Below are positions 11,058 to 27,092 of a stretch of DNA of 40,000 nt, one piece after another. The stretch lies in NCBI GenBank assembly GCA_025210395.1, contig JAOARV010000031.1, positions 66,646-106,645 of the forward strand. The letters run 5' to 3'. Position 1 is the stretch's first letter, and each line of letters starts with the position of its first letter. The position numbers and the translations under genes are program-made. This DNA is from Marinisporobacter sp. GTDB lineage: Bacteria > Bacillota > Clostridia > Peptostreptococcales > Thermotaleaceae. A model generated the notes under the pieces. That model was given only the letters and a program-made list of their open reading frames with translations. It had not been told where the DNA came from and did no database searches.

Positions 11058-11060
11058 ATT

Positions 11061-11189
11061 CTATCCCTCCATCATAATATTTACAAGTGCCTGTTCTAAT
11101 GCTTCAATACGTTCTTTTTCTGTTGGTTTCTTTGATTGTTCTTTTTCTTTATCAATTTCTTTTTGCGTTTTCCATGGTATATTCGCCAT
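11061..11189 (-). CDS. Small phage protein (42 aa, charged/coiled)
   Basis: My translation: MANIPWKTQKEIDKEKEQSKKPTEKERIEALEQALVNIMMEG*. ATG 11189 is preceded by AGGAGGTG. Positionally equivalent to the 42-aa ORF at 14427..14555. Confidence 0.5.
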   Translation of the reverse strand: MANIPWKTQKEIDKEKEQSKKPTEKERIEALEQALVNIMMEG

Positions 11190-11191
11190 AG

Positions 11192-11467: not shown

Positions 11468-11982
11468 TATTTCCACCTCCCAATTGCAAAAACATTGCAA
11501 TTACTTATACTGTCACCATCTTGAAAATCTGTCATTCCATTTATTCGCCTCATAGAAAATTGTGCAACCCCAGTACTTTTGTAACTACATCCACTTAGTC
11601 CTATCATATCTCTGCTTGGTGTTATATTTACATCAGCAGAATTACTAGAAAGTAGAAAAAATACATTTCCGATTGCGATAAATGATGCTGGAAAATTCCA
11701 AGTTGAATCAAGATATTCGTTGCTTTCATACCCTAATGATAAGGTGTTCCAGCATATTTGTGTACCATCATCGAATCTAATATATTCTCCATTACTATTG
11801 CTACCGCTTTCTGTTATATGTTTTTTCGTACTTTCTGCCTGATGCGACATAATCTTTTGATTAACTCCCTTTAAAGCCTGATCAATCTTAGCATTATCCT
11901 CCACAAAATCTGATCTCTTTGGATATTCATTTCCTTCCCATTGATTTAACCCTAAATATTCTGTTCTATTTTTACTTGGCAT
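11467..11982 (-). CDS. Short tail fibre / receptor-binding protein (copy 2)
   Basis: 171 aa. N-terminus YLGLNQWEGNEYPKRSDFVEDNAKIDQAL is the common fibre N-terminal adaptor motif. C-terminus ...GEYIRFDDGTQICW...NVFAIGRWK is a gp53-like knob ending in AIGxW. Confidence 0.7.
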   Translation of the reverse strand: MPSKNRTEYLGLNQWEGNEYPKRSDFVEDNAKIDQALKGVNQKIMSHQAESTKKHITESGSNSNGEYIRFDDGTQICWNTLSLGYESNEYLDSTWNFPASFIAIGNVFFLLSSNSADVNITPSRDMIGLSGCSYKSTGVAQFSMRRINGMTDFQDGDSISNCNVFAIGRWK

Positions 11983-12615
11983 TTACGACACCTCTCTTCT
12001 ACTCATTGCTTTTTCAATCAACACTAATAAAGGTCCAAAATCAGGTTTTTCTTTAATAACATTTCTCCAATACTCTGGACTTAAAATGATATTATCTTTT
12101 AATCTTTCAATAGCCTCTATTCCTTTTTCTATTCTCCAGTCATTTGTAGGCTTTAATAGCTCTTGGTCTACTTGCTCTAAATGATATTCCTCTATAATCT
12201 GTTGAAGTTTTTTAGGATAATGTGGATCTGTGGCATATCCTGCTTTGTATACTTCATTGGTAGCTTCTAAATAATCTTTTGCCTTGCAAACATTTTTATA
12301 TCTATTGACGGTACCGATGAGTCTTTGATAGTCCCTTACACTATCTTCTAAATGATCATAAGCTCTAAATGTAGCCTGTACAGTTATCATTTTTTCTCCA
12401 TTCCATTCCTTTGTAGGTAATGTAATTGTTTTTCCTTTCCAGTACTTTCCCGTTTTGAAGCCAAAATAATTGTTTGCACTCCCCATATGCTTCGTTCCAA
12501 AGCTACTTTCAAGACAAGCTTGTGCAATACATAGTGCTGGTAAAATATTATATTTTTCATAGCCTTCCTTTGCAATAGGTATCAATTGATTGATAAAATC
12601 CTGCTTATTCATCAT
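11983..12615 (-). CDS. Mannosyl-glycoprotein endo-beta-N-acetylglucosaminidase (GH73) with an unassigned C-terminal tail of about 60 aa
   Basis: 210 aa. LCIAQACLESSFGTKH...NNYFGFK...YATDPHYPKKL are GH73/LytD-type motifs. Start overlaps the XkdU-2 stop (ATGA) and the stop abuts the fibre-2 start. Confidence 0.8.
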   Translation of the reverse strand: MMNKQDFINQLIPIAKEGYEKYNILPALCIAQACLESSFGTKHMGSANNYFGFKTGKYWKGKTITLPTKEWNGEKMITVQATFRAYDHLEDSVRDYQRLIGTVNRYKNVCKAKDYLEATNEVYKAGYATDPHYPKKLQQIIEEYHLEQVDQELLKPTNDWRIEKGIEAIERLKDNIILSPEYWRNVIKEKPDFGPLLVLIEKAMSRREVS

Positions 12616-13163
12616 CGTACCCCCTTATAAATTTCAAATTCATCCCAACTAAGATTTAACTGATCCCACTTATCCCAAGTTTTATTGTAATCATCAAATT
12701 CATTCCAAATGAGATAATTAAAAATATATGCTATTGCCAGATGGGCAGGCTTTATATCTTCTAAAGCCTGCTTTAAATCCTCCATATTTGGAGGGATTCC
12801 ATACACACTCTCAAACTCAATGTGGATTTTTCCATCAAAGGTTACTTTCACATCCCCATTTGTATATGCATCTGCTACGAGTTTGATTAGGTTTCTATCT
12901 ACCTTTCCAGCACCTCTCCATTTAGATTTGATAGTACTTCTTCGTTCCTCATAAGGTCTATTTAGGTCTGTTGGTATCCCTAATTCTTTTTCATAAAGCT
13001 CTAGTGCCCATGTAGCTGTGTCAATTGCTAGTTGTTTCTCTAAATCTTTTATCATTAATGCTTTTCTATCAAGCTCTTGTCCCTGTACACTTATAAGCTC
13101 TTGAAAAACCTTGCTCTTTTGCTCAAAGATAGGTAAATACTTTAACATTCTTTCTTTAACCAA
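12612..13163 (-). CDS. XkdU/YmfQ-like baseplate protein (DUF2313), copy 2
   Basis: 183 aa. YLP..., ...RRSTIKSKWRG.G..., ...IPPNMEDLKQALEDIKPAHL are DUF2313 hallmarks. TTG start behind AGGAGGGG. Confidence 0.75.
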   Translation of the reverse strand: MVKERMLKYLPIFEQKSKVFQELISVQGQELDRKALMIKDLEKQLAIDTATWALELYEKELGIPTDLNRPYEERRSTIKSKWRGAGKVDRNLIKLVADAYTNGDVKVTFDGKIHIEFESVYGIPPNMEDLKQALEDIKPAHLAIAYIFNYLIWNEFDDYNKTWDKWDQLNLSWDEFEIYKGVR

Positions 13164-14223
13164 TATTCACCCCTCCTAACACAGATACTTGTTCATTTAC
13201 TATAGAAATATTTTTATTCTGCCCATTAATCCTTAACTCAGAAAAATCAATAATCCCTATAGAGTCTAATATAATACTTGTAATTTTGTTGTAGCTTACC
13301 TTATTTTCTTTAAATGCAATCTCTTTTAAATAAGCACTAATATTTTTCTTTACATCTTCTTTGATAGCTACGTCTGTCACGGCAAGATCTTTTTCTGTAA
13401 CCTTAAAATATATATCTAAAGTTATAGGAGTAGCACTTACAACAGTGCAAAAAGCACCTATAGGTGCTTTTCCTTCTCCTAATCCCTTTGCCTCTGGGTC
13501 AATATATTGTTGAACTTTTCTTGCTAAATCTGCATTAGGTTTTTTCTCCTTGTCTATAATGATCACTTTAACGGTATTCGGTTGATCATTAGGAAGAGAA
13601 ATCACCTTTACGTCTCCTACACCTGTAACTTCCTTTGCCCAGTTTCGATAATGATACTTATTCCCCGATGTAGCAGGAGTCTGTATCCTTTCATAATATC
13701 TTTGCAAAAGCTCTTGGTCACTTTCTGCTTCATAACCATTTTTAAACTCTTTTTGATTCGTTACATTTTTAAGCCCTGTGAGGGTAGCAGGGAAAGATTT
13801 GATAGCTCCTATAGGTACATTTCCTATAGAACCATATTCTTCACACGCTACTAAAATATCTACTTGTCCCTGATCAATAGTTTTGTTTTCCTTTATGATG
13901 AAATTTACCGTATCACTTGCAACTAAATCATTTTCTTTTACCTTTGCACCTATATTACCTATAATAGTCACATATCCACTTGCTTTTGTTGCAGCCTTTC
14001 TTTTAATCCCTGTTCTCTCATAAACTCTTTGTTCTAGCTCTAAACCTTTTAGATTCTTCATCATGAGTTTTCCTTCTACTACTTTTATTTCTTTTCCTAT
14101 GCTTTCTAATTCAATGGCAGTAGGCTTTAATGCATCATAAAAAAAAGAGCCTTCAGATTTGTCATAAGTCTCTGATATGCTCCTAAGCATTCTATTTTGT
14201 ATGGTTTCTTTATTTTCTACCAT
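13156..14223 (-). CDS. Baseplate J-like protein (XkdT/gp47 family), copy 2
   Basis: Track ORF is 13156..14250. ATG 14223 (MVENKETIQNRM...) is preferred because AAGGAGGTG lies 7 nt upstream. Conserved blocks SEGSFFYDALKP and TPATSGNKYHYRNWAKEV. Confidence 0.8.
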   Translation of the reverse strand: MVENKETIQNRMLRSISETYDKSEGSFFYDALKPTAIELESIGKEIKVVEGKLMMKNLKGLELEQRVYERTGIKRKAATKASGYVTIIGNIGAKVKENDLVASDTVNFIIKENKTIDQGQVDILVACEEYGSIGNVPIGAIKSFPATLTGLKNVTNQKEFKNGYEAESDQELLQRYYERIQTPATSGNKYHYRNWAKEVTGVGDVKVISLPNDQPNTVKVIIIDKEKKPNADLARKVQQYIDPEAKGLGEGKAPIGAFCTVVSATPITLDIYFKVTEKDLAVTDVAIKEDVKKNISAYLKEIAFKENKVSYNKITSIILDSIGIIDFSELRINGQNKNISIVNEQVSVLGGVNIG

Positions 14224-14249
14224 GAGTTTCACCTCCTTATAAAAGTGCA

Positions 14250-14278
14250 TAAAAATAACACCTGGTTTAAATGGTGTT
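14250..14278 (-). terminator. Intrinsic terminator between fibre cassette 1 and cassette 2
   Basis: On the - strand: AACACC, loop ATTTAAACCA, GGTGTT, then ATTTTTAT. The stem pairs 14257..14262 with 14273..14278. A short 6-bp stem. Confidence 0.5.
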
Positions 14279-14305
14279 TATAGTAAATTCAATGATATTC
14301 TTCCT

Positions 14306-14434
14306 TTATGATGCAACAATTTCCTCATACTGATCTTGTGTAATCCATCCTAACCTTAGTATTCTATCTAGTTGTTCTTTTGTCATCCAATTATTAGAGT
14401 AATATTCCCTTGCAATTTTGTACCAATCATGCAT
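14306..14434 (-). CDS. XkdX-family small phage protein (copy 1)
   Basis: My translation: MHDWYKIAREYYSNNWMTKEQLDRILRLGWITQDQYEEIVAS* (42 aa), a textbook XkdX pattern (W..y....t.eq....v..g.IT.eqYeeI). RBS AGAGGAGGAAAAG. Confidence 0.7.
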   Translation of the reverse strand: MHDWYKIAREYYSNNWMTKEQLDRILRLGWITQDQYEEIVAS

Positions 14435-14555
14435 TTTCTTTTCCTCCTCTTAATAAATCTAATTCAATCTGCAAGTCAATGACCTTCTGTGCTAATATTT
14501 CTATATCATTAGATGCTTTTTCAATTTCTACTGGACTTTTAACAACTACTTTCAA
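14427..14555 (-). CDS. Small phage protein (42 aa, coiled)
   Basis: TTG 14555 follows AGGGAGGGATAGAC. My translation: (M)KVVVKSPVEIEKASNDIEILAQKVIDLQIELDLLRGGKENA*. Overlaps the XkdX-1 start (ATGCATGA). Confidence 0.45.
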   Translation of the reverse strand: MKVVVKSPVEIEKASNDIEILAQKVIDLQIELDLLRGGKENA

Positions 14556-14557
14556 GT

Positions 14558-15013
14558 CTATCCCTCCCTTATCTCTATGACATTGATTTGTACTTCATCA
14601 AGAGTAATCGTATCTTTTGTAACAGAAAACCATGCAAGTCTGTCAATCATGTTGCTTGGTACTTTATCAAAATGTGATTCTAACTTTCCGATTTCTTTTG
14701 ATAATACGGTGATTCCATCTTCACAAAGCCACACTTCATAGTCATATCCCGTGGATATTTGGATTTCTGCTCCATCCAGTGGAATTTTAGTTCCTGTTGG
14801 TACTTGCTTCTTTATTTCTACTTCTTGCTGTGTTTCTTCATCCCACACTGTTTCTGTTACTGTGGTCATTTCTTCTGTATAATTTTTAAATAATTCCTTA
14901 TTTCCTGCTGTGTAATGAGTTCCGTCAATTTTTAGTTTCATGCCTTCTGTTGTTACTTTGAAGTCATGTAAAGCAGTATCAAGACTTCCTGTTACTACAT
15001 GTAGTGTTATCAT
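14558..15013 (-). CDS. Phage hypothetical protein downstream of fibre 1 (possible fibre accessory/chaperone)
   Basis: 151 aa, RBS AAGGAGGAATAATT. No motif recognised; function inferred only from position. Confidence 0.5.
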   Translation of the reverse strand: MITLHVVTGSLDTALHDFKVTTEGMKLKIDGTHYTAGNKELFKNYTEEMTTVTETVWDEETQQEVEIKKQVPTGTKIPLDGAEIQISTGYDYEVWLCEDGITVLSKEIGKLESHFDKVPSNMIDRLAWFSVTKDTITLDEVQINVIEIREG

Positions 15014-15025
15014 AATTATTCCTCC

Positions 15026-17545
15026 TTATTTTCCTATTGCCATCCATGTAATCCACACTTTTTTTAAAGAATCTTCTGTAGATACCTTTAAATATGGAGT
15101 GAAAGACGTTGTTGTTGGTTTTTCCATACCAATATAATCAATGTACTGACTCCAACCAGCACCAGTTATAAATATAGTTGGATTGTTTGAAAATGCTCTT
15201 TTAAATGTAATAGCACTAGAAAAACCTTGGGTGATAGGTGTTTCAAAAATACCGTACTCAATCCTCTCCCCATCACCTTTAATCATAGTATCTTTAATCT
15301 CTTTATTAATTCCCGCAATATCTCCTTCGACTTCGCCTACATGTTCTACTAACTTATTATGACTTTCACGTAAGTTTTCTTCATACTTGATTTGTGCATT
15401 TGCTAGTTGATTGTTATATTCTTCGTCTAGCATTTCATAGAGGACATAATATTCGGCTTGTGAATCATATTTTGTTGATAAATCTTCTTTTTTGATATAA
15501 AGTCTGCTTTTTCCGTAAGCAGATGCTATAGACCAAGTCCAATTATCATCATCTATAGTAAAATTTCCATCCTTTTTCTTATAAATAGATTTTATATGCT
15601 TTGTTTTATAATTAAGGTGATTGGGTAACACTATATTATTTATATACACATATTCATTAGCTCTTAATATTTCAGGTATTGCCTTTTCCCAAACTAAACC
15701 ACTTCCAACTTCAACGGTATTCATTCCCTCAACGGTAGCAAGCCCCTCACTACCAAAAGGAATATCTAAGTCTACTTCTTCTTCGTAAGGGTTTTCTAGT
15801 GCGTAGAAAAGTTCGTAATATTTTATAAAACCTTCAATGATAGCTGGGGATCGTTCAATAGGGACATTTCCTGAAAAATCATATCCGTTAGTTGAATATG
15901 AATTTAAATTTTCATCATTGAAATAACACCATGCTTTTGTACCGGATGTGTAAGGGGTATCATAATCATCTAAGTCCTTTTGATACATCTTCCATCCCAT
16001 CATAAATGCCTTAATTTCATCTTCCGTTGGTGTGTAAGATTCTCCCCATCCTGTGTCTGTGTTGGAAATCGTTAGATATAAAGCGCGATCCGCATCTGAA
16101 TACATCATATATTGATCTGAATTGTCGGTAGGACTAGAATGGGTTAAAATTTTACCATTATATTTTTTCAAGATATTTTTTTCCCATATAGAATTAATTC
16201 CTACATTCGCACTTTTTATTCTCTTATATTCTTTAACAGCAAAAATTAACTCCCAATCTAAATTTTCATCTAGTTTAACTCTTTTAACTTTTCTTTCCAC
16301 AATTCCCTTAGTCCCCTTAATCTCTCTCAAATTATCCCTATAAGAGGTGTTAGGAATTTCAGCTAAATGAGTAGGTAAAATTGCTAATGATTCTTTGTAA
16401 GGGGTATATGGTAGTGGAATTGTTCCTTCGTTTAATTGTATTTTAAAAGAGTAATTATTGAATGTAGTACCACTTGGAAACCATAATTGGAAAAACGCTA
16501 CTGGATTACTGTAATTAAATATCTGTGGTGGTGCTCCATCTGAAACCCTATAGTCTAAGTAGTGAGTGGTATCTCTTTTTCTTAAAACTATATTCACAAC
16601 GCCATTACCAACAACATCCAACAAGTTCATATTATATTGGGTATCCTTCTTGAGAACTTGGATATGTGAATCATACCAAGTACTTATTATACTTTGAGCA
16701 AATTTAAAGCCATCTGTTAGTTTCACATGGGTCGATGCTGTTGCCGTACCATGCAATACTACTTTATTTTCTTTTACAGTAATAGTAACACCATTTGCTG
16801 TAATACTACCTTGTGTTAGTTTAAGTAAATTTTCCCTAACCAACTTCACATAAGGGTGCTCAAGAGGTTGCGCTGATTCACAGTAAGGTACATCTTGGTT
16901 TGTCCAATCACCCTCAAGAATCATTACTTGATTAAACTTAATTGTTTTTCCATCTTCAACAATATCAGCATGGATATACAATCCTAATTCTATTGCATCT
17001 TTTTTCAAAAAAACTTTTTGTTTTCCACTTGACATATTAAAATAGCTGTAACCTTCTTTGTTTTTTAAATATCCTTTTAAGCCATAGGATGTATCATCAG
17101 AAACTATATTTGCAATAATAGTATAAGTTTTATTAGCTTTTATGTCTATTGGTAACTTCGATACTCTATGTATTGCATCATGCAAGACAGTTACACCTTC
17201 ACTACCACTTGATAGCATCCCTGACCAATTTCCATAATCATTACCATTATTAGCATAATTCACAACCATTTTACCTTCCATACTCACATCAACAGGACTT
17301 GCTACTTTTGAACTAAAGTGTTCTATCACAGAAGGATAATTTACTATCTTTACTGCCTTGTCTAGTTTATGAATTACTTCGTTATTTAGTTTTGTTATCC
17401 TATCTCTATCCGCTTCTATTCCTTGATCAATCTTATCCCAATTATCATTCAGCATTGTTTTTATATCAAAATATTCATTGCCATCTGTTTCAGGATTCTT
17501 TTTACATAGTTTTAAGTTTTTTGTTTCAGTTGCCAATTGGCTCAC
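15026..17545 (-). CDS. Long tail fibre / receptor-binding protein (copy 1)
   Basis: 839 aa. N-terminus NLKLCKKNPETDGNEYFDIKTMLNDNWDKIDQGI is the fibre adaptor motif. C-terminus ...ITFKRAFSNNPTIFITGAGW...VWITWMAIGK is a gp53-like knob. The real start is more likely TTG 17536, 8 nt after AGGAGG, than the track GTG 17545. Confidence 0.75.
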   Translation of the reverse strand: MSQLATETKNLKLCKKNPETDGNEYFDIKTMLNDNWDKIDQGIEADRDRITKLNNEVIHKLDKAVKIVNYPSVIEHFSSKVASPVDVSMEGKMVVNYANNGNDYGNWSGMLSSGSEGVTVLHDAIHRVSKLPIDIKANKTYTIIANIVSDDTSYGLKGYLKNKEGYSYFNMSSGKQKVFLKKDAIELGLYIHADIVEDGKTIKFNQVMILEGDWTNQDVPYCESAQPLEHPYVKLVRENLLKLTQGSITANGVTITVKENKVVLHGTATASTHVKLTDGFKFAQSIISTWYDSHIQVLKKDTQYNMNLLDVVGNGVVNIVLRKRDTTHYLDYRVSDGAPPQIFNYSNPVAFFQLWFPSGTTFNNYSFKIQLNEGTIPLPYTPYKESLAILPTHLAEIPNTSYRDNLREIKGTKGIVERKVKRVKLDENLDWELIFAVKEYKRIKSANVGINSIWEKNILKKYNGKILTHSSPTDNSDQYMMYSDADRALYLTISNTDTGWGESYTPTEDEIKAFMMGWKMYQKDLDDYDTPYTSGTKAWCYFNDENLNSYSTNGYDFSGNVPIERSPAIIEGFIKYYELFYALENPYEEEVDLDIPFGSEGLATVEGMNTVEVGSGLVWEKAIPEILRANEYVYINNIVLPNHLNYKTKHIKSIYKKKDGNFTIDDDNWTWSIASAYGKSRLYIKKEDLSTKYDSQAEYYVLYEMLDEEYNNQLANAQIKYEENLRESHNKLVEHVGEVEGDIAGINKEIKDTMIKGDGERIEYGIFETPITQGFSSAITFKRAFSNNPTIFITGAGWSQYIDYIGMEKPTTTSFTPYLKVSTEDSLKKVWITWMAIGK

Positions 17546-18104
17546 CTCCTAAAATAATTGGTACAAATGGTGAAAAATCTGTTAATCTTCTTTTTTGTAT
17601 TTCATTGATGGTTAGCTTTTGTACTTGATTGATGATCAGATACTTAAATTCATATTCTACAATTAAGTGTGCTGGCTTTATTTCTTCTATGGCATTTTTT
17701 AAATCTTCAAGGTTTGGGGGTGCACCTAGTGTATCCATGAATTTGATGATGAATTTATTATTTACAATACATTCCTCATTTTCAATAACTTCAATCTTTC
17801 CTTTTTCATAGCTTTGAGCAACATTTTCTAAGAGCTTTACAGTGACAGTTCCTATTCCTCTAAGCTTTGATTTGATGATACTTCTTCGAAATAGTGTATC
17901 TTTTTCATTACTGATGGGAATTCCTAGATCTTTTTCCCATCTTTCAAGATTCTTGTCTGCTGTATCTATAAAGAATTGATTGATATTTTCTTGTATCTTT
18001 TGCATCAATTGTTCTAGTTGCTTTTCCTCGGTGGTCATGAGATTTTTCATGACCTTGCTTTTTCTATAATACCCTGGAAGGTAGCTCATTAGCTTTTGTT
18101 CCAT
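17526..18104 (-). CDS. XkdU/YmfQ-like baseplate protein (DUF2313), copy 1
   Basis: 192 aa. SYLPGYY..., ...RRSIIKSKLRG.G..., ...APPNLEDLKNAIEEIKPAHL. RBS GAGGGGGGTG. Confidence 0.75.
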   Translation of the reverse strand: MEQKLMSYLPGYYRKSKVMKNLMTTEEKQLEQLMQKIQENINQFFIDTADKNLERWEKDLGIPISNEKDTLFRRSIIKSKLRGIGTVTVKLLENVAQSYEKGKIEVIENEECIVNNKFIIKFMDTLGAPPNLEDLKNAIEEIKPAHLIVEYEFKYLIINQVQKLTINEIQKRRLTDFSPFVPIILGGEPIGN

Positions 18105-19198
18105 ACAACACCCCCCTCTTTCCTTAGAACAGCTACTTGTTTTTCTCCAATATCATAGACTCCTTTTTGTAAATCTATAAGGTTTTCATCTACATATACT
18201 TGAAGGTTGGTATAATCTACTACCCCTTCTGCTTGAAGAATGGCACTTCCTATTTTTGCATAGCTTATATAGCCTTCAAGATAAGCTGTATCCTTTAAAT
18301 ATTTTTTGATGTTTTCTTCTATATTTGTAATCACTTGTTCTTGTTTACAATTTACTTTGTTGATTTTTAGCTTTACTTTTACATAGGTTTCTATTTCTTG
18401 AGCTGATTGTACCTTTACAATAGCTCCTATAGGTCTTTTTTCATTGATATACGTTTTTACTTCATTAATTAGGCTATCCTCTGCTGCTTTCATTCCCTCA
18501 GCAATAATCACAACCTCTACCGTACCATTTCCTTTTGTTACTGAACACACTCCACCTTGCTGGATTACCTTTTGGGCTGGAAATACTCTTGCATCTTCTA
18601 CTCTAGGAACTTCCTTTGCCCAGTTTCTATAATGATGTTTATTTCCTGATGTAGCAGGAGTACGAACCTTATCAAAATATCTTTGTCTTAAAGCTTCATC
18701 ACTTTCCCCATCATATCCATTGGTGATGGGTTCTAGATTCGTTACACTGCTAAAGCCACTTAGAGATGTTGGAAACTTTTTTATCTTACCTGCTCCTATA
18801 TTTCCAATGCTTCCTATTTCTTCGCATTCTACTAATACCTTTACCTGTCCACTTTCGCCAATAGTGACATTCTCTTTCACAATAAAATCTACAATATCAC
18901 TAGATACCCTCATCCCTACTCTTACTTCTGCTCCTTTTTCTCCATCAATATGTACAATAGTAGTTGCTTTTATAGGTGCTTTTCTTTTTAATCCTTGCTC
19001 AGCTACCTTTTTATCTAAAAAAATACCTGTAGCAGTTTCTACAAAGCCTTGATCTAATATTTTCTCTTGTTGTTCATAAGCTTTTACTAATTCAATCGCA
19101 ATTGGTTTTAGTACATCATAAAAAAAACTTCCTTCTGATTGATCATAGGTATCATCAATTCCTGATAACATATTCTTCATAATTTTGTCTATCATCAT
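18089..19198 (-). CDS. Baseplate J-like protein (XkdT/gp47 family), copy 1
   Basis: 369 aa. SEGSFFYDVLKP and TPATSGNKHHYRNWAKEV blocks. Overlaps the XkdS-like stop. Confidence 0.8.
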   Translation of the reverse strand: MMIDKIMKNMLSGIDDTYDQSEGSFFYDVLKPIAIELVKAYEQQEKILDQGFVETATGIFLDKKVAEQGLKRKAPIKATTIVHIDGEKGAEVRVGMRVSSDIVDFIVKENVTIGESGQVKVLVECEEIGSIGNIGAGKIKKFPTSLSGFSSVTNLEPITNGYDGESDEALRQRYFDKVRTPATSGNKHHYRNWAKEVPRVEDARVFPAQKVIQQGGVCSVTKGNGTVEVVIIAEGMKAAEDSLINEVKTYINEKRPIGAIVKVQSAQEIETYVKVKLKINKVNCKQEQVITNIEENIKKYLKDTAYLEGYISYAKIGSAILQAEGVVDYTNLQVYVDENLIDLQKGVYDIGEKQVAVLRKEGGVVWNKS

Positions 19199-19641
19199 AA
19201 GTTCACCTCCTGACTCAAGAAATCTCCACCTACTAAATCTACTTGAAAGGATACAATCAATTGGGGATTATCTTTTTTGATTTCCCATTGGGATATAGAC
19301 CCAATCATCGGATGCTTTGTTAAGCTTTCTGTGATTTCTCTTCTTAGCTCTGCTTCTACAAAAGCTTTTGGAAAATTGTTTCCTATGATTAAATCTTCAA
19401 TGATTATGCCATATTCATTGGAATCTTCTCTTTCGTAGATTTTGTATCTATATTTTTCTGTCCTCAAAATCTTTTCAATCCATCCCTTGATAGCAGCTTT
19501 TCCTGTTACTTCAACAACTCTTCCATCTTTTACATCAAAATCTCCTTTTTTGAAATCAAATAAAAAAGATTTACCTATCTTCGGTAAACCTGACTCCTTT
19601 TCTTTGGTCTTTATTTGTAATTGTGTTACCTGCGGAAACAT
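19195..19641 (-). CDS. XkdS-like baseplate wedge protein (DUF2634, gp25/W-like)
   Basis: 148 aa. Position and size between the XkdR-like and baseplate J genes. GKSFLFDF...GD motif typical of DUF2634. Confidence 0.6.
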   Translation of the reverse strand: MFPQVTQLQIKTKEKESGLPKIGKSFLFDFKKGDFDVKDGRVVEVTGKAAIKGWIEKILRTEKYRYKIYEREDSNEYGIIIEDLIIGNNFPKAFVEAELRREITESLTKHPMIGSISQWEIKKDNPQLIVSFQVDLVGGDFLSQEVNL

Positions 19642-20057
19642 TATAATCTCACCGCCTTATCTATTAGAAAATAGGTTTGTTCATCTGTAGACGGAACCAA
19701 TATAACTATATCCCCTTTTTTAAGGGTATCTGTATATTTCATAGTCCCTGTAATAGTCGTTTGTGCACCAACACTTCCACTAACTACCTTATATGTTGTA
19801 GGTGGTGGACTTGTTTGAAGTGTAATAGAACCACCCTCTCCGTTGGTTTGTATATTTCCTTTTACTTCTATTTCTCTTTGATAATCCTTTAATACATGTG
19901 CTGCTATGACTAAGTGTTCTTTTGTTAGGATGATCTTGTCTCCAAGAGATACTTGAATATTAGGGGGAGGGCTAAGTACCATTCCTGTCTGTGGTCCTAG
20001 ATAAGGTTGATTATCCCTTTCTTTAAACAATTTAGCCAGTTCACTAATGCCATCCAT
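19641..20057 (-). CDS. XkdR-like protein (DUF2577; spike/central baseplate component)
   Basis: 138 aa. ...GMVLSPPPNIQVSLGDKIILTKEHLVIA... matches the DUF2577 pattern. Located between the XkdQ-like and XkdS-like genes. Confidence 0.6.
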   Translation of the reverse strand: MDGISELAKLFKERDNQPYLGPQTGMVLSPPPNIQVSLGDKIILTKEHLVIAAHVLKDYQREIEVKGNIQTNGEGGSITLQTSPPPTTYKVVSGSVGAQTTITGTMKYTDTLKKGDIVILVPSTDEQTYFLIDKAVRL

Positions 20058-21025
20058 TATATCACCCCTAATCCTAGCTGCATTTTGTGAATGCCATTTT
20101 TCACTGTATGATTTACATCCTTGATCAGGTATTTTCCAGTCATTCCTGTTATAGGCTCTTTGATTTCTATGGTTCTTCCTGCTCGTACCTTATCATCTCC
20201 CATGATTTCAACGCTGTTCTCTTCAAATATTTTCCCAAAGTCTTCTAATATTTTGTCTGCAATGTTCCTTGCTTTTGCTTTATCTTTTTTGTCTATGGTT
20301 GTAACTTCTTGAAGTAGCCCATATTGTTTGATTAATTCATCTTTTTTTCTGTTTTCGATCACATGATTATTAAATACTACTTGAACACTATTTTTCATCT
20401 CTTCTATAGATCGTTTTCTACTAGGACTAGAAAGAGCCTTTGTTATATCATAGGGTTGTATATTTTCTGCAAGCTGGAAGGTTCCTTTGATGATTAACTC
20501 CTCTTGTTTTTCTATACATAGCTTCCCCTGCCTCATTTCCATCCTATATTTCTTTCCTGTATGCTTCTTTGCAATATCTAAAATGTCCTTGATAATTTCA
20601 CTAATAGCTTTCTCCCTATAGATTTTGTTGATCACCGTATTAATAGGTGCAATATTTCCAATAGGTACATTAAAATCATTGAGCATAGTTTCAATGGCTT
20701 TTTTTCCTGTAACTTTATTAAACTGATAAACTGCCTTACTTTTATTGAGATAAAATGCATAATCAAAGCAGCTATATTCGATTCTACCTCTTCCATTTCT
20801 TTGCTCTGAAACAACAATGGCTCGAAGAATTTCATCTTTATTATTGAGAATGATTAAGCTTCCTAAATCTACTGGATTCATTGGAAAATATCGATCATCA
20901 TTAAAAGCAATATCAAAGGTTAGTTGTTGTCCTAACTCATTGATATTGCTTCTCCAGCTGATACTTCCTACTAAAGGTGTAATATCTGTTTGTAAGTTAT
21001 CTTTAATATTAAGTAGCTGATGCAT
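20057..21025 (-). CDS. XkdQ/YqbQ-like baseplate hub protein (gpD/gp27-like)
   Basis: 322 aa. N-terminus ...DITPLVGSISWRSNINELGQQLTFDIAFND... resembles XkdQ/YqbQ. Canonical position after the XkdP-like gene. Confidence 0.65.
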   Translation of the reverse strand: MHQLLNIKDNLQTDITPLVGSISWRSNINELGQQLTFDIAFNDDRYFPMNPVDLGSLIILNNKDEILRAIVVSEQRNGRGRIEYSCFDYAFYLNKSKAVYQFNKVTGKKAIETMLNDFNVPIGNIAPINTVINKIYREKAISEIIKDILDIAKKHTGKKYRMEMRQGKLCIEKQEELIIKGTFQLAENIQPYDITKALSSPSRKRSIEEMKNSVQVVFNNHVIENRKKDELIKQYGLLQEVTTIDKKDKAKARNIADKILEDFGKIFEENSVEIMGDDKVRAGRTIEIKEPITGMTGKYLIKDVNHTVKNGIHKMQLGLGVI

Positions 21026-21026
21026 A

Positions 21027-21467
21027 TTACACCTCCTTTTGTTCTAGTTGTATGAATTTGAATTCGCTCAAGGTAAGGGTATAATATATATCCCCACTAC
21101 CATCCTGCTGCCCATATTCAAAGCTTTCTATCGTACAAGCCATATTCCCTAAATGATCAGGCATATCATTAATAATCATTCGAATGGGTACTCTTCTATT
21201 TTTCCATTTTTCAAGCATGTCTACATAGTCCCATGCTTTGTACTGTTGATTTTCTTCTAAACCTCTTAAAAAAGGATACTTATGGTTTGGGAAAAATGAT
21301 TGTATGCTAATGCTCCTTAAATTTTTCATGCCTATCAGCTTGATTTCTCCCTGACTTATGGTATCAAAGGTTTCATTTTTCATTCCTGATTGTATTTTAA
21401 ATTCCTTTGGCAAAACAGGAAGTGTAAAAAATTGCTCTCTATTGTTTACTGAAAGTAAAATATCCAT
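21027..21467 (-). CDS. XkdP-like tail protein, N-terminal domain only (no LysM)
   Basis: 146 aa. LPVLPKEFKIQSG...IESFEYGQQDGSGDIYYTLTLSEFKF resembles the N-domain of XkdP-type proteins, which usually carry a C-terminal LysM. None is seen here. Confidence 0.5.
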   Translation of the reverse strand: MDILLSVNNREQFFTLPVLPKEFKIQSGMKNETFDTISQGEIKLIGMKNLRSISIQSFFPNHKYPFLRGLEENQQYKAWDYVDMLEKWKNRRVPIRMIINDMPDHLGNMACTIESFEYGQQDGSGDIYYTLTLSEFKFIQLEQKEV

Positions 21468-21480
21468 GAATGCACCTCCT

Positions 21481-23280
21481 TTATGCGTATGTAGGTTGGT
21501 TGGACATGGCTTCTTTTAGTCTTGGGATCAACTTATTAGCAATTTCTTCACTAGACATATTGGCACCTGTAATATTGAATGTAAGATTATTTCTTATATG
21601 CTGACGAGTTCTACGATCTTCCGATTTTATCCCCATATTTTTATTGCTTTGTCCATGTACTGGATGATTTCTCGTTGGGTTTTTAACATAATTATTTCTA
21701 TATAGATTCATTATATTTGATCCTACTCGTTTTCCATATTTTGTGATTCCTAAATTTTTAGTATTAGCTTTATACTCCAGTTTCATTTCATGCTGCGTAT
21801 TAATCTTATTTTGTGATTTAGGAATGAAATGATTCCTACTAATACTATATTTTCCATTTTGTAACTTTTCTTTCATTAAATCTACTTGCTTAGTTGCACC
21901 TGTAAGATTGAATGTAAGATTATTTCTTATATGCTGACGAGTTCTACGATCTTCTGATTTTATCCCCATATTTTTATTGCTTTGTCCATGTACTAGATGA
22001 TTTCTCATTGGGTTTTTAACATAATTATTTCTATATAGATTCATTATATTTGACCCTAATTGTTTTCCATATTTTGTTATTCCTAAATCTTTAGTATTAG
22101 CTGTATACTCCAGTTTTATTTCATGCTGTGTATTAATCTTGTTTTGTGATTCAGGAATAAAATGATTCCTACTACTACTATATTTTCCATTTTGTAACTT
22201 TTCTTTCATTAAAGCTACTTGCTTAGATGGAGTATATTTATCTTTGATCTTGTTCCAAGTATTATTAATAACCCTTACGCTGTTTGTCTCTAAATTTTTT
22301 AAATTATTTTCTTTTATTTGTGCTTTAAACTTTTGATCTTTTGTTCTTTCATTCTCACGTATAGAAATAGGCACGGTTCTATTTCCTAGATCCTTGATTT
22401 GTGGATAATTTTGCATATATGAATCTAGATTAATTGGTATATTTAAATCTTTTGGAGGAATAAAATACTTATTAATTTCCGCTCTCATAGGATCATCTAA
22501 TATATTTTTATACACCATCGTAAGAGGAGTAGTCACTATAGCAGATGTTCCCAAGCTAACTAAATCTACAGCTGCAAGAAATTGTATACATTCATCTTCT
22601 TTTTTCTCCCTCAGTGTTTTTATAGCAAATAATATAGTAAGAGGAGTAAATATATTTTTTGAAATTGTATTTTGTAATGCTTTAAATCTAGATAAATTTT
22701 TTATAGATCCTTCAACCCATCTTTTTATTGGTCCTGATTGTTTTATTAAATCTTTATTATTTCCCATTTTCCCCCACAATTCAATCATCTTTTGTGAGGC
22801 TATCCCTGCTTTACTAGCCATATCAATTGTCTTATTTTTTAAAAGTAATTGGTTTTTTTTAGAAATTGATATATTTTTTACAAATTTTGAAAATTCCCTC
22901 CCTATCTTTGTATCCAAAAACCAAGTACCATAAGATATCCCCGAACCATAAGAACCATCACCATTATCAATTTCTCCATTTCTATTACTATCTACAGGCG
23001 TATCTACAAATTCGCCAAATTGTTCCATAAATTCGTCAAATGAATTGATTATAAAAGGTTTTATATAATTATCTATATTTTTATTTAACCACTTTCCTAT
23101 AGGATTTGTCTGTCCAATATTTCTTCTAGGATCAGTTTTTTTACAAAGTTCATTAGATTTTTTCATGATTTCTATATATGGATTTTTAAATTGATTCTTT
23201 CCATCATTCTCATCTTTTTTTATTAACTTCTTATCTATTTCTTTAGACTTCATTGTTTCTTTCTCCATTTTATTACCCAT
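21481..23280 (-). CDS. Tail tape measure protein
   Basis: 599 aa in the canonical slot after the chaperone pair. Central hydrophobic segments (TPLTILFAI, AAVDLVSLGTSAIVTTPL). C-terminal 2 x 111-aa tandem repeat. RBS AAGGTGGTGAG. Confidence 0.7.
   Translation of the reverse strand: MGNKMEKETMKSKEIDKKLIKKDENDGKNQFKNPYIEIMKKSNELCKKTDPRRNIGQTNPIGKWLNKNIDNYIKPFIINSFDEFMEQFGEFVDTPVDSNRNGEIDNGDGSYGSGISYGTWFLDTKIGREFSKFVKNISISKKNQLLLKNKTIDMASKAGIASQKMIELWGKMGNNKDLIKQSGPIKRWVEGSIKNLSRFKALQNTISKNIFTPLTILFAIKTLREKKEDECIQFLAAVDLVSLGTSAIVTTPLTMVYKNILDDPMRAEINKYFIPPKDLNIPINLDSYMQNYPQIKDLGNRTVPISIRENERTKDQKFKAQIKENNLKNLETNSVRVINNTWNKIKDKYTPSKQVALMKEKLQNGKYSSSRNHFIPESQNKINTQHEIKLEYTANTKDLGITKYGKQLGSNIMNLYRNNYVKNPMRNHLVHGQSNKNMGIKSEDRRTRQHIRNNLTFNLTGATKQVDLMKEKLQNGKYSISRNHFIPKSQNKINTQHEMKLEYKANTKNLGITKYGKRVGSNIMNLYRNNYVKNPTRNHPVHGQSNKNMGIKSEDRRTRQHIRNNLTFNITGANMSSEEIANKLIPRLKEAMSNQPTYA
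21559..22224 (-). repeat. Tandem direct repeat, 2 x 333 bp, in frame inside the tape measure gene
   Basis: Unit 1 is 21892..22224 (aa 353-463) and unit 2 is 21559..21891 (aa 464-574). 99 of 111 aa are identical by my count. The DNA is visibly near-identical at a 333-nt offset (for example GCACCTGTAA at 21563 and 21896). Confidence 0.9.
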
Positions 23281-23338
23281 CCACTCACCACCTTCTCTTA
23301 AAAAATAAAACCATAAAAAGCACCCCTATGGGTACTTC

Positions 23339-23485
23339 CTATGATTCATACTGTTCTTTCATCATTTTCTCTAACTCTTCCATTTCCTTCTCATAAAAAG
23401 CCATGAGGAGAATCATCTCTCCCCTTGGCATGTTGTATAGCACAGATGGTCGGATGCCTTTTGTTTTCCAGTAGTAGTAAAGCAT
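23339..23485 (-). CDS. Small ORF in the -1 frame after the chaperone gene (48 aa from its ATG; probable frameshift extension, gpT-like)
   Basis: My translation: MLYYYWKTKGIRPSVLYNMPRGEMILLMAFYEKEMEELEKMMKEQYES*. The frame stays open upstream through the last codons of the XkdN-like gene. Confidence 0.55.
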   Translation of the reverse strand: MLYYYWKTKGIRPSVLYNMPRGEMILLMAFYEKEMEELEKMMKEQYES

Positions 23486-23508
23486 CTGTGTAAAACCATC
23501 TGTGTTGA

Positions 23509-23904
23509 TTAGTTTTTTACTTCTTCTACTGCTCCACCATCAAATCCACTTAGTTCTCCAATGATGTTGTATAATGTTATGATTTCTCCAGGAAGAAGAA
23601 GCTTTGTCACTAAATCCTTTGGTGTATAAACATGAAATTTATCCATCAGCTCTTTGCTTTTTAGACTTGGGCTTTTTACTCCTTCTATAACGGTCATTCT
23701 TTGAAGCTCTCCTATGTTGATGCTTTCTTGTTCTTCATCCATAGCTAGCTCTTGGATTTCTTCCATTTTATCAGGGGTTAGTGCTTCTACTCGAAAGATT
23801 ACCTTTTCTCCTATTGCCTCTGATAGTCTTTTCATTTCAACTTCTTTACTTGGCTTTCTTAGTTTGCTTTCATCTAGCTGTAATAACAAATCTAATGTAT
23901 TCAT
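23509..23904 (-). CDS. XkdN-like tail assembly chaperone
   Basis: 131 aa, acidic, between the tube and tape measure genes. LDESKLRKPSKEVEMKRLSE...FRVEALT resembles the XkdN/TAC family. RBS AAGGAGGAAG. Confidence 0.7.
   Translation of the reverse strand: MNTLDLLLQLDESKLRKPSKEVEMKRLSEAIGEKVIFRVEALTPDKMEEIQELAMDEEQESINIGELQRMTVIEGVKSPSLKSKELMDKFHVYTPKDLVTKLLLPGEIITLYNIIGELSGFDGGAVEEVKN
23512..23518 (-). promoter_or_regulatory. Putative -1 programmed ribosomal frameshift heptamer A_AAA_AAC
   Basis: - strand reads GT A AAA AAC TAA. The X_XXY_YYZ heptamer occupies the last two sense codons of the chaperone ORF. The -1 frame continues for about 58 codons to stop 23339. Confidence 0.6.
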
Positions 23905-23915
23905 AAGCTTCCTCC

Positions 23916-24362
23916 TTATTCTGGATTGATTACATCTGTAAAGTCATAGCCTGTAAATGTAAATGGACATTCTACCTTTCCTAATGCTTTTGCTTCAAAA
24001 TTCATTAATGTTAAATCATCAAAGCTAACCCCTGTTAATGCTACTCTTTCTGATTGAGCATCTACTGTATCTGGATCAGCAAGCTTGGATACGATTGTAA
24101 ATCTAATATCTTTTCCCTTCTTGATCATATCGCCTAGCTTGATTGCCATTCTTGAGTTTACTTTGTGCATCTTTACAGTTCCTTTTCCTTCCCAGCCTGT
24201 AACCTTTGTATCTTTAGCAAGGACTCCACACATATTTACATCTTCTTTTTTTAATGTAACCTTTGCTTCAAGTCCTGTCAATTCACTTACCTTATCTCCA
24301 TCTAACCAAATTTCTCCCCACGTTCCGTTAATCACTCTATTTCCAGGTATTTTGTTTGCCAT
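23916..24362 (-). CDS. Tail tube protein (XkdM-like)
   Basis: 148 aa directly after the sheath gene. INGTWGEIWLDGDKV...GKGTVKMHKV pattern of XkdM-type tube proteins. Confidence 0.8.
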   Translation of the reverse strand: MANKIPGNRVINGTWGEIWLDGDKVSELTGLEAKVTLKKEDVNMCGVLAKDTKVTGWEGKGTVKMHKVNSRMAIKLGDMIKKGKDIRFTIVSKLADPDTVDAQSERVALTGVSFDDLTLMNFEAKALGKVECPFTFTGYDFTDVINPE

Positions 24363-24374
24363 ATTTATTCCCTC

Positions 24375-25445
24375 CTACATGAATATTTCCATTGTTAAGT
24401 CTTCCATCGCATCTAAGAATTTCACATGTGCTTTGATAAAGACTTCACTTCCTGTATTGTATTCCTTGATTTCTTGTTCTTTTAATGAATCTACATCTAC
24501 ACCTTTTTTCATTAGGTATATCTTTTGGGTATCCATATCGATCATTGCCTTATTTTCATAAGCATTGTCTAATACATCAATTCTTTCTAACTCTTGAAAA
24601 TATGCATTGATGGCTGCTAAGAATAGTACTTTATTATCATATGAATTGATAATTTTTCCAACATAAGAACCATCAAAGGTGTCATGAATATCATCTCTCA
24701 TCAAGTCTACTGCATCTACAATCTTGATCTTTTTAAATTCCTCTCCCTTTGTAGCAGTAGTTGTTGTAAGAGAGTTTACCCCTCTACCGATCTTGATTTT
24801 TACGCCATCGTTGATTAAGATTAATTTTCCATTGTCAATATCTACATCTGGATTATCTGATTCTGTAATGGCTTCTACTTCATTAAGTTCATAGTAAGTA
24901 GAACTTCTTGTAAATGGTAATCCAGCAAGAATTCCTGCGATTCTACAAGTATATTGACTCGCACTATAAGGAACAACCTTATCCTTGTCTACTCTCACCT
25001 GGATGCCTTCTGTAGCAAAATTAATGATTCCTTCATGATCTGCCACTATATTTGGTAATACTGCTTTAAATGTCTTTTTGTTGTTGTCTCTTTGTCCTTT
25101 GACCCATGAAACAATATTTTGTACATCCTTTTGTTCAATTCCTGGAATAGCAAGATAGTTCCACTTTTTGCTTTTTAATCGCTTAAGGGCTTCTGAATAA
25201 TCTTCATCTGCATTGATTCTTTCAACGATAATTTTGCTAGGTATTCCCATAAAGGTTTTTTCAATATAGCCTTTATTTTCAGAGGTCCAATCCTCTGCCT
25301 TTAATTCATCTATTGCCTTATAGATCATTGTGTCAAAATCCTTTGTACCATCCTTTAAAATCAATGCTACAATTCCTCTAGCACTTCTCTTGATAGCTGT
25401 CGTTCCTTTTGTTTTAAATTCTATAGAAATTTTTGGTAATCCCAT
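24375..25445 (-). CDS. Contractile tail sheath protein (XkdK-like)
   Basis: 356 aa. Size, position and N-terminus (MGLPKISIEFKTKGTTAIKRSARGIVALILKD) are typical of small Firmicute sheath proteins. Confidence 0.85.
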   Translation of the reverse strand: MGLPKISIEFKTKGTTAIKRSARGIVALILKDGTKDFDTMIYKAIDELKAEDWTSENKGYIEKTFMGIPSKIIVERINADEDYSEALKRLKSKKWNYLAIPGIEQKDVQNIVSWVKGQRDNNKKTFKAVLPNIVADHEGIINFATEGIQVRVDKDKVVPYSASQYTCRIAGILAGLPFTRSSTYYELNEVEAITESDNPDVDIDNGKLILINDGVKIKIGRGVNSLTTTTATKGEEFKKIKIVDAVDLMRDDIHDTFDGSYVGKIINSYDNKVLFLAAINAYFQELERIDVLDNAYENKAMIDMDTQKIYLMKKGVDVDSLKEQEIKEYNTGSEVFIKAHVKFLDAMEDLTMEIFM

Positions 25446-25888
25446 TATTTTTCCTCCTTCATACTTAGTTGTTGCATCTTTTCATAATTTTGATAATCAT
25501 ATAGCTTCCTTTCATCCACAGTATCCATAAATTGTATTTCAAAAGAAAATGCTAATACCTTATTGACTATACTTACTTTGCTTTCTTGAATGGTAAATTT
25601 TCTATTCTTTACAATCAATAATGGATGAAAAATTTCTTGTAGTTTTTCTAAAGCTTTTAGATTCTCTTCCATGGTTTCACTTTTTGAAAAATATCGTATA
25701 TCTATTTTCATAAGCTTATTTTGATGATATTTATCCTCCATGGTAGTTGAAATCGGTAAAGCTTGTATGAAAAATGCAGGTTGATCCAAATCTTTATCCT
25801 GCATACTTTCACAGAAATGATATTTAGGAAAGCTTTCCTTGATCTTTTCTATGACAGCCTTTTGAATTTCAATGAATGTCATCCTCAT
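25445..25888 (-). CDS. Tail terminator / tail completion protein (XkdJ position)
   Basis: 147 aa immediately upstream of the sheath gene. FIEIQKAVIEKIKESFPKY...PAFFIQALPIS resembles phage tail terminator family proteins. Confidence 0.55.
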   Translation of the reverse strand: MRMTFIEIQKAVIEKIKESFPKYHFCESMQDKDLDQPAFFIQALPISTTMEDKYHQNKLMKIDIRYFSKSETMEENLKALEKLQEIFHPLLIVKNRKFTIQESKVSIVNKVLAFSFEIQFMDTVDERKLYDYQNYEKMQQLSMKEEK

Positions 25889-26187
25889 CTCTCCTTTGAC
25901 ATCCGTCTTTGCTTCATCTTTCTTTGAATAATCTCCCCTGATAAATGATGAATATCTAAAAGATCCATCATATACTCCTCATCTAATGCCAATCCTGTTT
26001 GAGCTTTTTTTAACGCTTCTTTCATTGTTTCTATCTGGTTCTTATAAGTATTTCTCTCTTTGATCACCTTATTGAGCCGGGTTCTTGGAACAAAGCTTTG
26101 ATCATTTACTATAAGTTTTTTGTTTCCTAGCTTTTCTTTTAGTTGGTCATATAACTTTTGACCTAGTATTTCTTTTAAGTGTTTCAT
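25885..26187 (-). CDS. Short protein with a phage scaffold (GP20-like) N-terminal motif; first gene of the structural operon
   Basis: 100 aa. LKEILGQKLYDQLKEKLGNKKLIVNDQSFVPRTRLNKVIKERNTYKNQIE resembles the N-terminus of GP20-type scaffold/minor structural proteins, which are usually about twice as long. From memory, not searched. Confidence 0.35.
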   Translation of the reverse strand: MKHLKEILGQKLYDQLKEKLGNKKLIVNDQSFVPRTRLNKVIKERNTYKNQIETMKEALKKAQTGLALDEEYMMDLLDIHHLSGEIIQRKMKQRRMSKER

Positions 26188-26266: not shown

Positions 26267-26328
26267 CTTATTTTAAAGTATAATATAGAAATTTTAATAA
26301 TATCGGTTTAGTTTCGGCAATTTTTCGG
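26267..26328 (-). promoter_or_regulatory. Conserved 62-nt promoter-like module, copy B (upstream of the structural operon; overlaps the 3' end of the regulator gene)
   Basis: - strand: CCGAAAAATTGCCGAAACTAAACCGATATTATTAAAATTTCTATATTATACTTTAAAATAAG. Matches copy A at 47 of 62 positions without gaps. Ends 79 nt before ATG 26187. Confidence 0.55.
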
Positions 26329-26841
26329 AATATTTACTTCTGTAAATTGTAAAATCATACTGTTTTTCAATATTCTTATCATTTTCGTAATGGCTTTATT
26401 TTTTATTGCTCTACATTGTCTTTCCTCTATATTGATTTGAAAAGTAATATATCTCCAAATTTTCTTTTCAATATATTTCATTTGAATAATTTGCTTTTCA
26501 ATATCTGTCAAGCTTTCTATTGCGTTGTAGATTCTTTGTAAAAATCTCTCTACATGTCTTTTTTCAAATTCAAGCAAATCGATCTTGTGCTGGATTTCAA
26601 AATCCTTTACAGCTTGTATTTCTGTTTTCGAAAAAAAGCTATTGGTCTTAATAAAATTTTCATAATCTATTCCTTTTAAACTTAAATACTTCATATCTTT
26701 TAAATCTGCAATTTGTAATTCTATTTCTTTTATTTTTGCTTCATATTGCTTTAAGTTCTTTAATATGTTTTCAACACTTTTCATATTTAAACTTTTTTCA
26801 TTTTTACTTTGTATATTTTGTTCTAATGCTTGTGCATACAT
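26308..26841 (-). CDS. Phage late-gene transcriptional regulator, sigma-70 region-4 / ArpU-RinA-like
   Basis: 177 aa. C-terminus LTDIEKQIIQMKYIEKKIWRYITFQINIEERQCRAIKNKAITKMIRIL looks like a region-4 type HTH. First gene of the cluster. Confidence 0.5.
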   Translation of the reverse strand: MYAQALEQNIQSKNEKSLNMKSVENILKNLKQYEAKIKEIELQIADLKDMKYLSLKGIDYENFIKTNSFFSKTEIQAVKDFEIQHKIDLLEFEKRHVERFLQRIYNAIESLTDIEKQIIQMKYIEKKIWRYITFQINIEERQCRAIKNKAITKMIRILKNSMILQFTEVNIPKNCRN

Positions 26842-26934
26842 TACTCATCACCACCAAAATTTTTTTGTTTATAAAGAATTCAAATATAAATAAATCCATG
26901 TCATTTATCAATCATTTCGTTCCATCAAACTTTT

Positions 26935-26996
26935 GTTATTTTAGAGTATACTATACATTTTTTCATAAAATTGGCATATATTCGGCACTTTTCCGG
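26935..26996 (-). promoter_or_regulatory. Conserved 62-nt promoter-like module, copy A (upstream of the regulator gene)
   Basis: - strand: CCGGAAAAGTGCCGAATATATGCCAATTTTATGAAAAAATGTATAGTATACTCTAAAATAAC. Contains direct CCGrAA repeats about 11 nt apart and TATACT / TAAAAT -10-like hexamers. Ends 93 nt before ATG 26841. Confidence 0.55.
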
Positions 26997-27030
26997 AGAT
27001 TTCATAACAATCATAAAGTGCCTATAGAAA

Positions 27031-27061
27031 ATTATACCATATTTTTTCGAACAAGTGTTCT
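27031..27061 (-). promoter_or_regulatory. Extended -10 promoter (TGgTATAAT) with an overlapping LexA/Cheo box, facing the regulator gene
   Basis: + strand CGAACAAGTGTTCT (27048..27061) matches the Cheo box CGAACRNRYGTTYC at 13 of 14 positions. On the - strand it sits over the -35 region of TGGTATAAT (27039..27031). Confidence 0.6.
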
Positions 27062-27092
27062 ATTTTTAGTATTTTTCTATAAAAAAAATAGA

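Follow-up and report, generated by a model that had tools for sequence, protein, structure and literature searches.

In the 40,000 nucleotides of DNA analysed here, hereafter called the window, a near-consensus operator for LexA, the repressor of the DNA-damage (SOS) response, lies over the −35 position of a promoter (P1) that faces the regulator gene of a tailocin, a headless phage-tail weapon. Judging from the sequence and from related genomes, we consider it quite probable that this operator, placed on a −35-less extended −10 promoter of the sigma-A type, is the entry point of the tailocin locus; DNA damage would then probably trigger the tailocin directly. On a wider reading, which we hold to be somewhat more probable than not and in which the phage lysogeny switch was lost and the activator rewired to the host LexA, no tailocin and no late activator of the RinA/ArpU type would have been described under direct LexA control before, and the locus would be a natural example of domestication in which a phage repressor was swapped for the host one. 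Tailocin regulation is understood mainly in Pseudomonas (PrtR, PrtN) and, to our knowledge, the step from damage to expression is poorly defined in Gram-positive tailocins such as diffocin, monocin and PBSX-like tails. What the locus may offer is a minimal and conserved circuit, consisting of a single host operator, a single activator and a promoter module present twice. Such a circuit suggests a route by which a prophage remnant falls under host control, and it could help in predicting SOS-inducible tail-cluster weapons in the genomes of anaerobes.

The predicted operator, its promoter and the SOS boxes of the genome

The predicted operator is the unstranded 16-mer TCGAACAAGTGTTCTA at 27047..27062, corresponding to about −39 to −24 of P1. 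On inspection of the sequence it contains CGAACAAGTGTTCT at 27048-27061, in which the palindromic core GAACAAGTGTTC at 27049-27060 is perfect, and comparison with the extended Gram-positive consensus CGAACRNRYGTTYC (GAAC-N4-GTTC) gives agreement at 13 of 14 positions. The extended −10 element of P1, TGGTATAAT, is of the TGn type and occupies 27031..27039 on the − strand (the + strand reads ATTATACCA); it is presumed to be sigma-A dependent, no −35-like hexamer is recognisable on reading the sequence, and the start site is predicted near 27023, assuming about 7 nt after the −10. Between the 16-mer and the TG of the −10 element there are 7 nt, and between the GTTC of the core and the same TG 9 nt, with the −35 position of this predicted promoter being covered. 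The next gene on the − strand past P1 is a 177-aa ORF (26308-26841). Both motifs are therefore found where the earlier note had claimed a near-consensus LexA box (27048..27061) and an extended −10 promoter (27039..27031) facing the regulator gene, and the geometry that it described, with the box over the −35 position, agrees with the coordinates and recurs with the same spacing at the SOS promoter of ydjM. A consensus scan for promoters and terminators, which returned 8 promoter-like sites against 7.8 expected, did not call P1, because the scan requires a −35.

The genome is a draft of 3.40 Mb in 67 contigs, with 31.7% G+C and 91.6% completeness, and 86% of it lies within ORFs of at least 90 aa. 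Its classic SOS genes carry intergenic cores or one-mismatch sites in front of them, of the type GAAC/AAAC-N4-GTTC: the recA box CGAACAAATGTTCT differs by one spacer base from the operator of the tailocin locus, uvrB, pcrA and a parE/gyrB-like gene have a one-mismatch box each, and a ydjM-like gene has two boxes. A scoring matrix was trained on six boxes of this genome only (recA, uvrB, pcrA, the two of ydjM and that of the parE-like gene), the tailocin site being excluded. With this matrix the operator scores 19.4 bits, which is rank 2 genome-wide after recA (21.4 bits) and the best score outside the training set; the other training boxes score 18.5 and 16.7 (ydjM), 18.4 (pcrA), 18.0 (parE-like) and 17.3 bits (uvrB). 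The earlier note had proposed a genome-wide comparison of this kind and had held that SOS boxes of a different consensus would speak against the idea; the operator came out just below recA, and the organism's own boxes follow the Gram-positive consensus, which the operator fits. The same matrix also detects three tandem boxes before the lexA genes of relatives and therefore captures the LexA specificity of the group.

As for what could be expected by chance, 11 sites in the genome reach at least 16 bits, all 11 of them intergenic, against 3.1 under a first-order Markov null, which gives 0.25 sites per genome at 19 bits or more. The bare core GAACN4GTTC is less discriminating, being found once in the window against 0.21 expected and 12 times in the genome (7 of the 12 intergenic) against about 20 under the first-order Markov null; when the window was shuffled, a core turned up one time in six. 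The score alone is suggestive; it is together with position and conservation that, on the sequence evidence, it makes a chance match untenable.

With regard to position, a high-scoring box lies at the −35 position of a TGnTATAAT at three promoters in the genome. In front of ydjM, 23 nt separate the start of the 16-mer from the TG of TGCTATAAT, a spacing identical to that of the tailocin-locus site, and in front of the parE-like gene the box starts 31 nt before a TGGTATAAT. These shared layouts indicate that the arrangement of the operator is a normal SOS promoter layout for this organism. At recA, at a ComK-like gene and at position 6447 of contig C44 (C44:6447), the box lies just downstream of the −10.

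The tail locus, its regulator and a repeated promoter-like module

Matches to Pfam and PHROG delineate a head-less contractile-tail operon of the R-type tailocin kind at 10472..26187 on the − strand. It encodes a tail terminator, sheath, tube, XkdN-like chaperone, tape measure, YqbQ-like protein and sheath initiator, and further two baseplate-J cassettes, fibres, a glucosaminidase and a holin. Searches with Pfam and PHROG and inspection of the flanks found no head, terminase, packaging, replication, integrase or CI/XRE/S24 repressor gene in or beside the tail cluster, which bears out the earlier claim that no phage CI-type repressor is encoded; the single head-like trace in the locus is one weak scaffold-like 100-aa ORF. 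Judged by these family matches, the gene content is that of an R-type tailocin, defined as a complete contractile tail with lysis genes and without genes for a head, packaging, replication or integration. The flanks are cellular: an acyltransferase, EamA and a Na/Ca exchanger border one end of the locus, GntR-ABC and TspO the opposite end.

Several observations concern the GntR-ABC side. The YtrA/GntR-type gene before the ABC operon (27156-27496, + strand) is broken: its frame is interrupted some 45 codons in, and a stop follows further on. Its Marinisporobacter orthologue is an intact ORF of 124 aa (L042:2181-2555, − strand). The TspO gene lies 3.5 kb from the tail locus in the window (30368-30856, − strand) and adjoins the tail locus in Anaerophilus (L043:1831-2364). 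From this gene order, the GntR-ABC genes together with a Met-rich-protein gene appear to form a block inserted into a conserved chromosomal slot, and the pattern of the TspO slot suggests that the tail locus is old and vertically inherited.

The regulator, a 177-aa protein encoded at 26308..26841 on the − strand, immediately upstream of the tail operon, is described here as a putative late activator resembling RinA, ArpU and sigma region 4. It matches phrog_36 ("transcriptional regulator") with an E value of 8e-20 and phrog_248 with 3e-10, has no match in Pfam, and stays below the family cut-offs of RinA (24.7 bits, cut-off 31.9), ArpU (21.7, cut-off 43.1) and sigma70-ECF (24.1, cut-off 42.9). 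Its homologue in phage phiSM101, which precedes terS, is annotated via the RinA model. The AlphaFold model is all-helical with a pLDDT of 65, i.e. of modest confidence, and its comparison with the PDB gave no significant match, only weak local matches to sigma region 4 (3hug, probability 0.6-0.85); as far as the model can tell, this structure search does not decide between a sigma factor and an activator. With regard to the label "sigma-r4/ArpU-like" given in the earlier note, the RinA, ArpU and sigma-70 scores are all below threshold, and from its sequence the protein is best called RinA/ArpU-like rather than a filed member of either family.

Between P1 and the start codon of the regulator, sequence and relatives delimit a 5′ leader of about 180 nt (26842..27024, − strand). 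A search of the leader against Rfam returned no family, and no known riboswitch or sRNA accounts for its length. The leader does hold one copy of a module of about 60 nt, composed of three CCGAwA repeats 11 nt apart, then 18 nt and then TATACTnTAAAATAA, with TATACT as −10. This copy A (26938..26996, − strand) is a putative activator-dependent autoregulatory promoter, P2, while copy B (26270..26328, − strand), which extends over the 3′ end of the regulator gene and immediately precedes the tail operon, is a putative late promoter. In the whole genome the composite motif of the module occurs twice, as copies A and B only, so that the regulator's own leader and the start of the operon share it, and both positions are conserved in relatives. 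The module would fit a promoter dependent on an activator or on an alternative sigma factor, serving autoregulation as well as the late operon.

Conservation in relatives and alternative explanations

The regulator has close homologues in related genomes, the family including Marinisporobacter balticus, Anaerophilus nitritogenes, Geosporobacter ferrireducens, Anaerosolibacter carboniphilus and Inediibacterium massiliense. The box and TGGTATAAT are both retained ahead of the orthologous regulator in six genomes belonging to four genera, namely the window genome and G001 of the same genus, Marinisporobacter balticus, Anaerophilus nitritogenes and G023, and Geosporobacter ferrireducens. In five of these loci (all but that of Geosporobacter) the regulator is followed by the same 100-aa ORF, the tail terminator and the sheath, and its start codon is preceded, at a distance of 219-223 nt, by a box whose core is perfect; in Geosporobacter the box is 468 nt upstream of the regulator and is followed by the same TGTGGTATAAT. 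Alignment of the six loci shows that GAACA..GTTCG and the −10 element are invariant, with a gap of 6-9 nt between the box and the TG, while the spacer of the box takes the forms ACTT, ACGT, ATGC, ACAT and ATAT. Most of the flanking sequence has diverged, some 14 of the 82 other positions being invariant. The gene upstream of the box differs as well: the window and Marinisporobacter have GntR-ABC there, Anaerophilus has TspO, and G001 has a different gene again. Since the box is kept whatever the upstream gene, the site is part of the regulator promoter and does not belong with the divergent GntR-ABC operon. Two boxes precede a homologous regulator in three genomes that belong to a second family of the order.

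The link is not universal, as a box within 1.5 kb is lacking at four close homologues, namely those of G024 (Anaerosolibacter), G120 and G065 and the second Marinisporobacter copy. The promoter modules of Anaerosolibacter come straight after a terminator. No LexA box was found within 1.5 kb of the weak homologues (E about 1e-11 to 1e-13) in a genus of genomes of about 4.2 Mb in the same order, nor near the homologous regulator of phages phiSM101 and phiMMP01, where it closes the early region, ahead of terS. A pattern scan of IMG/VR for the box with TGGTATAATTTT returned only the same three isolate loci and added no diversity.

Some variations among the relatives are worth recording. In Geosporobacter ferrireducens (L045:2953-5270) the box-bearing regulator is followed directly by a cassette of baseplate-J and a Mu-gp48-like gene and not by terminator, sheath and tube, and the leader, of about 430 nt, contains the promoter module twice in tandem; a tandem pair ahead of the regulator is also seen in Anaerosolibacter. 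In the second family, genome G109 (L054:900-1103, − strand), and G102 as well, encodes a 67-aa protein consisting of a LexA DNA-binding domain only, divergent from the homologous regulator, with one LexA box facing each gene of the divergent pair, an arrangement that recalls GIL01 gp6 and PBSX XkdB.

Given this conservation, it is extremely improbable that the palindrome is a chance match in AT-rich intergenic DNA with no regulatory role. The null expectations lend such a match some room, with about 20 perfect cores and some 0.25 sites of at least 19 bits per genome and a core in one of six window shuffles; yet chance would have to keep the arms invariant while the spacer varies, at the same position in six genomes with diverged flanks, and it would have to produce the second-best site of the genome in the very geometry of the ydjM SOS promoter. 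A true LexA site could instead serve the divergent GntR/ABC-transporter operon on the + strand, as the GntR start codon (27156) follows the box at a distance of 95 nt and Marinisporobacter has the same neighbour. However, the likely + strand promoter (TTTACA at 27094, −10 near 27117) is downstream of the box, which would then sit near −75, a poor place for repression, and the box is kept with its regulator-facing −10 element where the upstream gene is TspO or another; we regard this assignment as highly improbable and rejected it on geometry and on conservation without synteny. We find it very unlikely that the main protein on the box is one specific to the element, with a LexA-type DNA-binding domain, rather than the host LexA. 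Such proteins are known (GIL01 gp6, PMC6182141; PBSX XkdB) and the relatives of the second family do encode a gene with the LexA_DNA_bind domain only, of 67 aa, between the two boxes and divergent from the regulator, but no such gene is present in or near the locus studied here, and the only weak match to the LexA N-terminus in the genome is on another contig, at 22.8 bits.

The operator might also be a relic, lexA having been lost in this strain and the locus being otherwise controlled, silent or leaky. Neither a lexA gene nor a fragment of one was found in the assembly by family-model search, tblastn with the LexA proteins of relatives or synteny, and the best match to the LexA model there is an S24-only protein of 165 aa (44.8 bits). 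Against such a loss, the assembly is a draft in 67 contigs and 91.6% complete, the boxes at recA, uvrB, pcrA and ydjM are intact, and LexA is found above the cut-off in all three genomes of the same genus and in 18 of the 21 related genomes searched, G001 having both a lexA (258 bits) and the box at the regulator; moreover, an unrepressed lysis locus would presumably be strongly selected against. We therefore consider a relic unlikely, and an assembly gap is the likely reason for the missing lexA. The end of contig C7 (about 34800-35205) carries a gene that is syntenic with the lexA neighbourhood of G003, another genome of the genus, and the contig ends in an IS3-type transposase OrfA.

Proposed circuit, known systems and further LexA boxes

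The preferred reading, a host LexA operator on the promoter of the regulator, can be put together as the following circuit, in which we infer the binding of LexA and the activity of the promoter from the score, geometry and conservation of the site. As long as the cell is undamaged, a LexA dimer occupying the box (about −39 to −24) would bar RNA polymerase from P1. Upon DNA damage, activated RecA would lead to self-cleavage of LexA and P1 would fire, giving a transcript with the leader of about 180 nt and the 177-aa RinA/ArpU-like activator. The activator would then probably act on the module, with its helically phased CCGAwA repeats, both within the leader of its own gene and ahead of the tail operon, and the resulting positive feedback would drive expression of the tail and lysis genes and commit the cell to tail production and lysis. 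The operator is one of the strongest of the genome by score and, as tightly bound SOS operators elsewhere suggest by analogy, it perhaps delays firing until damage is severe, which would be sensible for a suicidal function. The phage lysogeny switch, with CI/Cro and the early genes, is absent, and the host LexA appears to stand in for it. Direct SOS control of the locus without a phage repressor, as suggested in the earlier note, is thus what the own-genome score, the geometry, the conservation in six genomes and the lack of a repressor gene point to. For the family as a whole (Marinisporobacter, Anaerophilus, Geosporobacter and Inediibacterium), we lean towards the view that a vertically inherited R-type tailocin lost its lysogeny switch, that its late activator was rewired to the host LexA and that autoregulation makes the decision irreversible.

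The closest precedent that we found for such a circuit is SigN (ZpdN) of plasmid pBS32 in Bacillus subtilis, where a LexA-repressed promoter and a second, regulator-dependent promoter precede the same regulator gene. There, PsigN1 is sigma-A dependent and repressed by the chromosomal LexA, PsigN3 is SigN dependent, and DNA damage leads through SigN feedback to expression of the phage-derived element and to cell death (Burton et al. 2019, PMC6751061). SigN, a proven sigma factor, is plasmid-borne and has a regulon largely without structural genes (PMC6751061), whereas the regulator of the tailocin circuit proposed here is RinA/ArpU-like, chromosomal and encoded directly ahead of the tail operon. 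A tblastn search of the regulator against a plasmid collection, in which pBS32 is assumed to be included, returned clostridial records only; on sequence grounds, the resemblance to SigN lies in the circuit and not in the protein. The "very compact wiring" that the earlier note saw in a LexA box on the activator promoter is accurate in so far as one operator sits on that promoter, yet a LexA-repressed promoter coupled to an autoregulated one has its precedent in SigN of pBS32 (PMC6751061).

Direct control of domesticated, phage-derived genes by the host LexA, and not by a phage repressor, is also on record for SaPI operon I of Staphylococcus aureus, a morphogenesis operon (Ubeda et al. 2007, as cited in PMC3152322). 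In that cited account, and different from the arrangement proposed here, the structural operon is itself the target of LexA, with no activator in between and no feedback, and the element is a packaging parasite and not a tailocin. R-pyocins of Pseudomonas are induced by damage via RecA, and a dedicated activator turns on their tail and lysis genes (PMC10598620; PMC12066065). Their activator PrtN is repressed by PrtR, a LexA/CI-like protein encoded in the locus, whereas the tailocin locus described here has no repressor of its own and carries a host LexA box on the activator promoter. Rhizoviticin likewise has a LexA-family repressor encoded in its locus. PBSX of Bacillus subtilis shares with the present locus the order of its tail genes, including an XkdN-like chaperone and a YqbQ-like protein, is SOS-inducible and has a sigma-like positive factor (Xpf) preceding the late operon, but it keeps the Xre repressor and the early genes xkdB and xkdC, XkdB having a LexA-type HTH.

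The late activators RinA, ArpU and Ltr of Gram-positive phages are small proteins with a sigma-region-4-like C-terminus, encoded just upstream of the late operon (PMC3152322, PMC3753634). In the RinA/ArpU phages the activator is the last gene of an early operon under CI/Cro, whereas the tailocin regulator has a putative LexA-controlled promoter of its own. The full-text literature that was searched holds no report of a host LexA box on the promoter of a tailocin activator, although absence there is not proof. Direct LexA control is used by colicins as well. The logic therefore has precedents in SigN of pBS32, SaPI operon I and the colicins, and its use in a tailocin is unreported in the literature searched.

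The scan of the genome also brought up LexA boxes at other places. On contig C44 (locus L006), a TGGTATAAT promoter is followed by a box of 18.6 bits (C44:6447-6478), and a second box lies 2.3 kb away (C44:8799). The box adjoins a gene for an RstR-like XRE repressor (L006:2636-2998, − strand) and small ORFs for membrane and coat-like proteins (e.g. L006:4002-4169, + strand); by analogy with CTXphi, this may be a filamentous prophage under the joint control of LexA and an RstR-type repressor. At C61:16504 a box with a perfect core lies between the TATAAT and the ribosome-binding site of the 199-aa ComK-like gene (L010:2536-3135, + strand). Finally, the pcrA gene that carries a LexA box (C49:1749-4526, locus L033) encodes 925 aa in which the match to PcrA is split into residues 13-257 and 614-921; residues 263-327 give a weak match to an intein-containing model, and this pcrA probably carries an intein.
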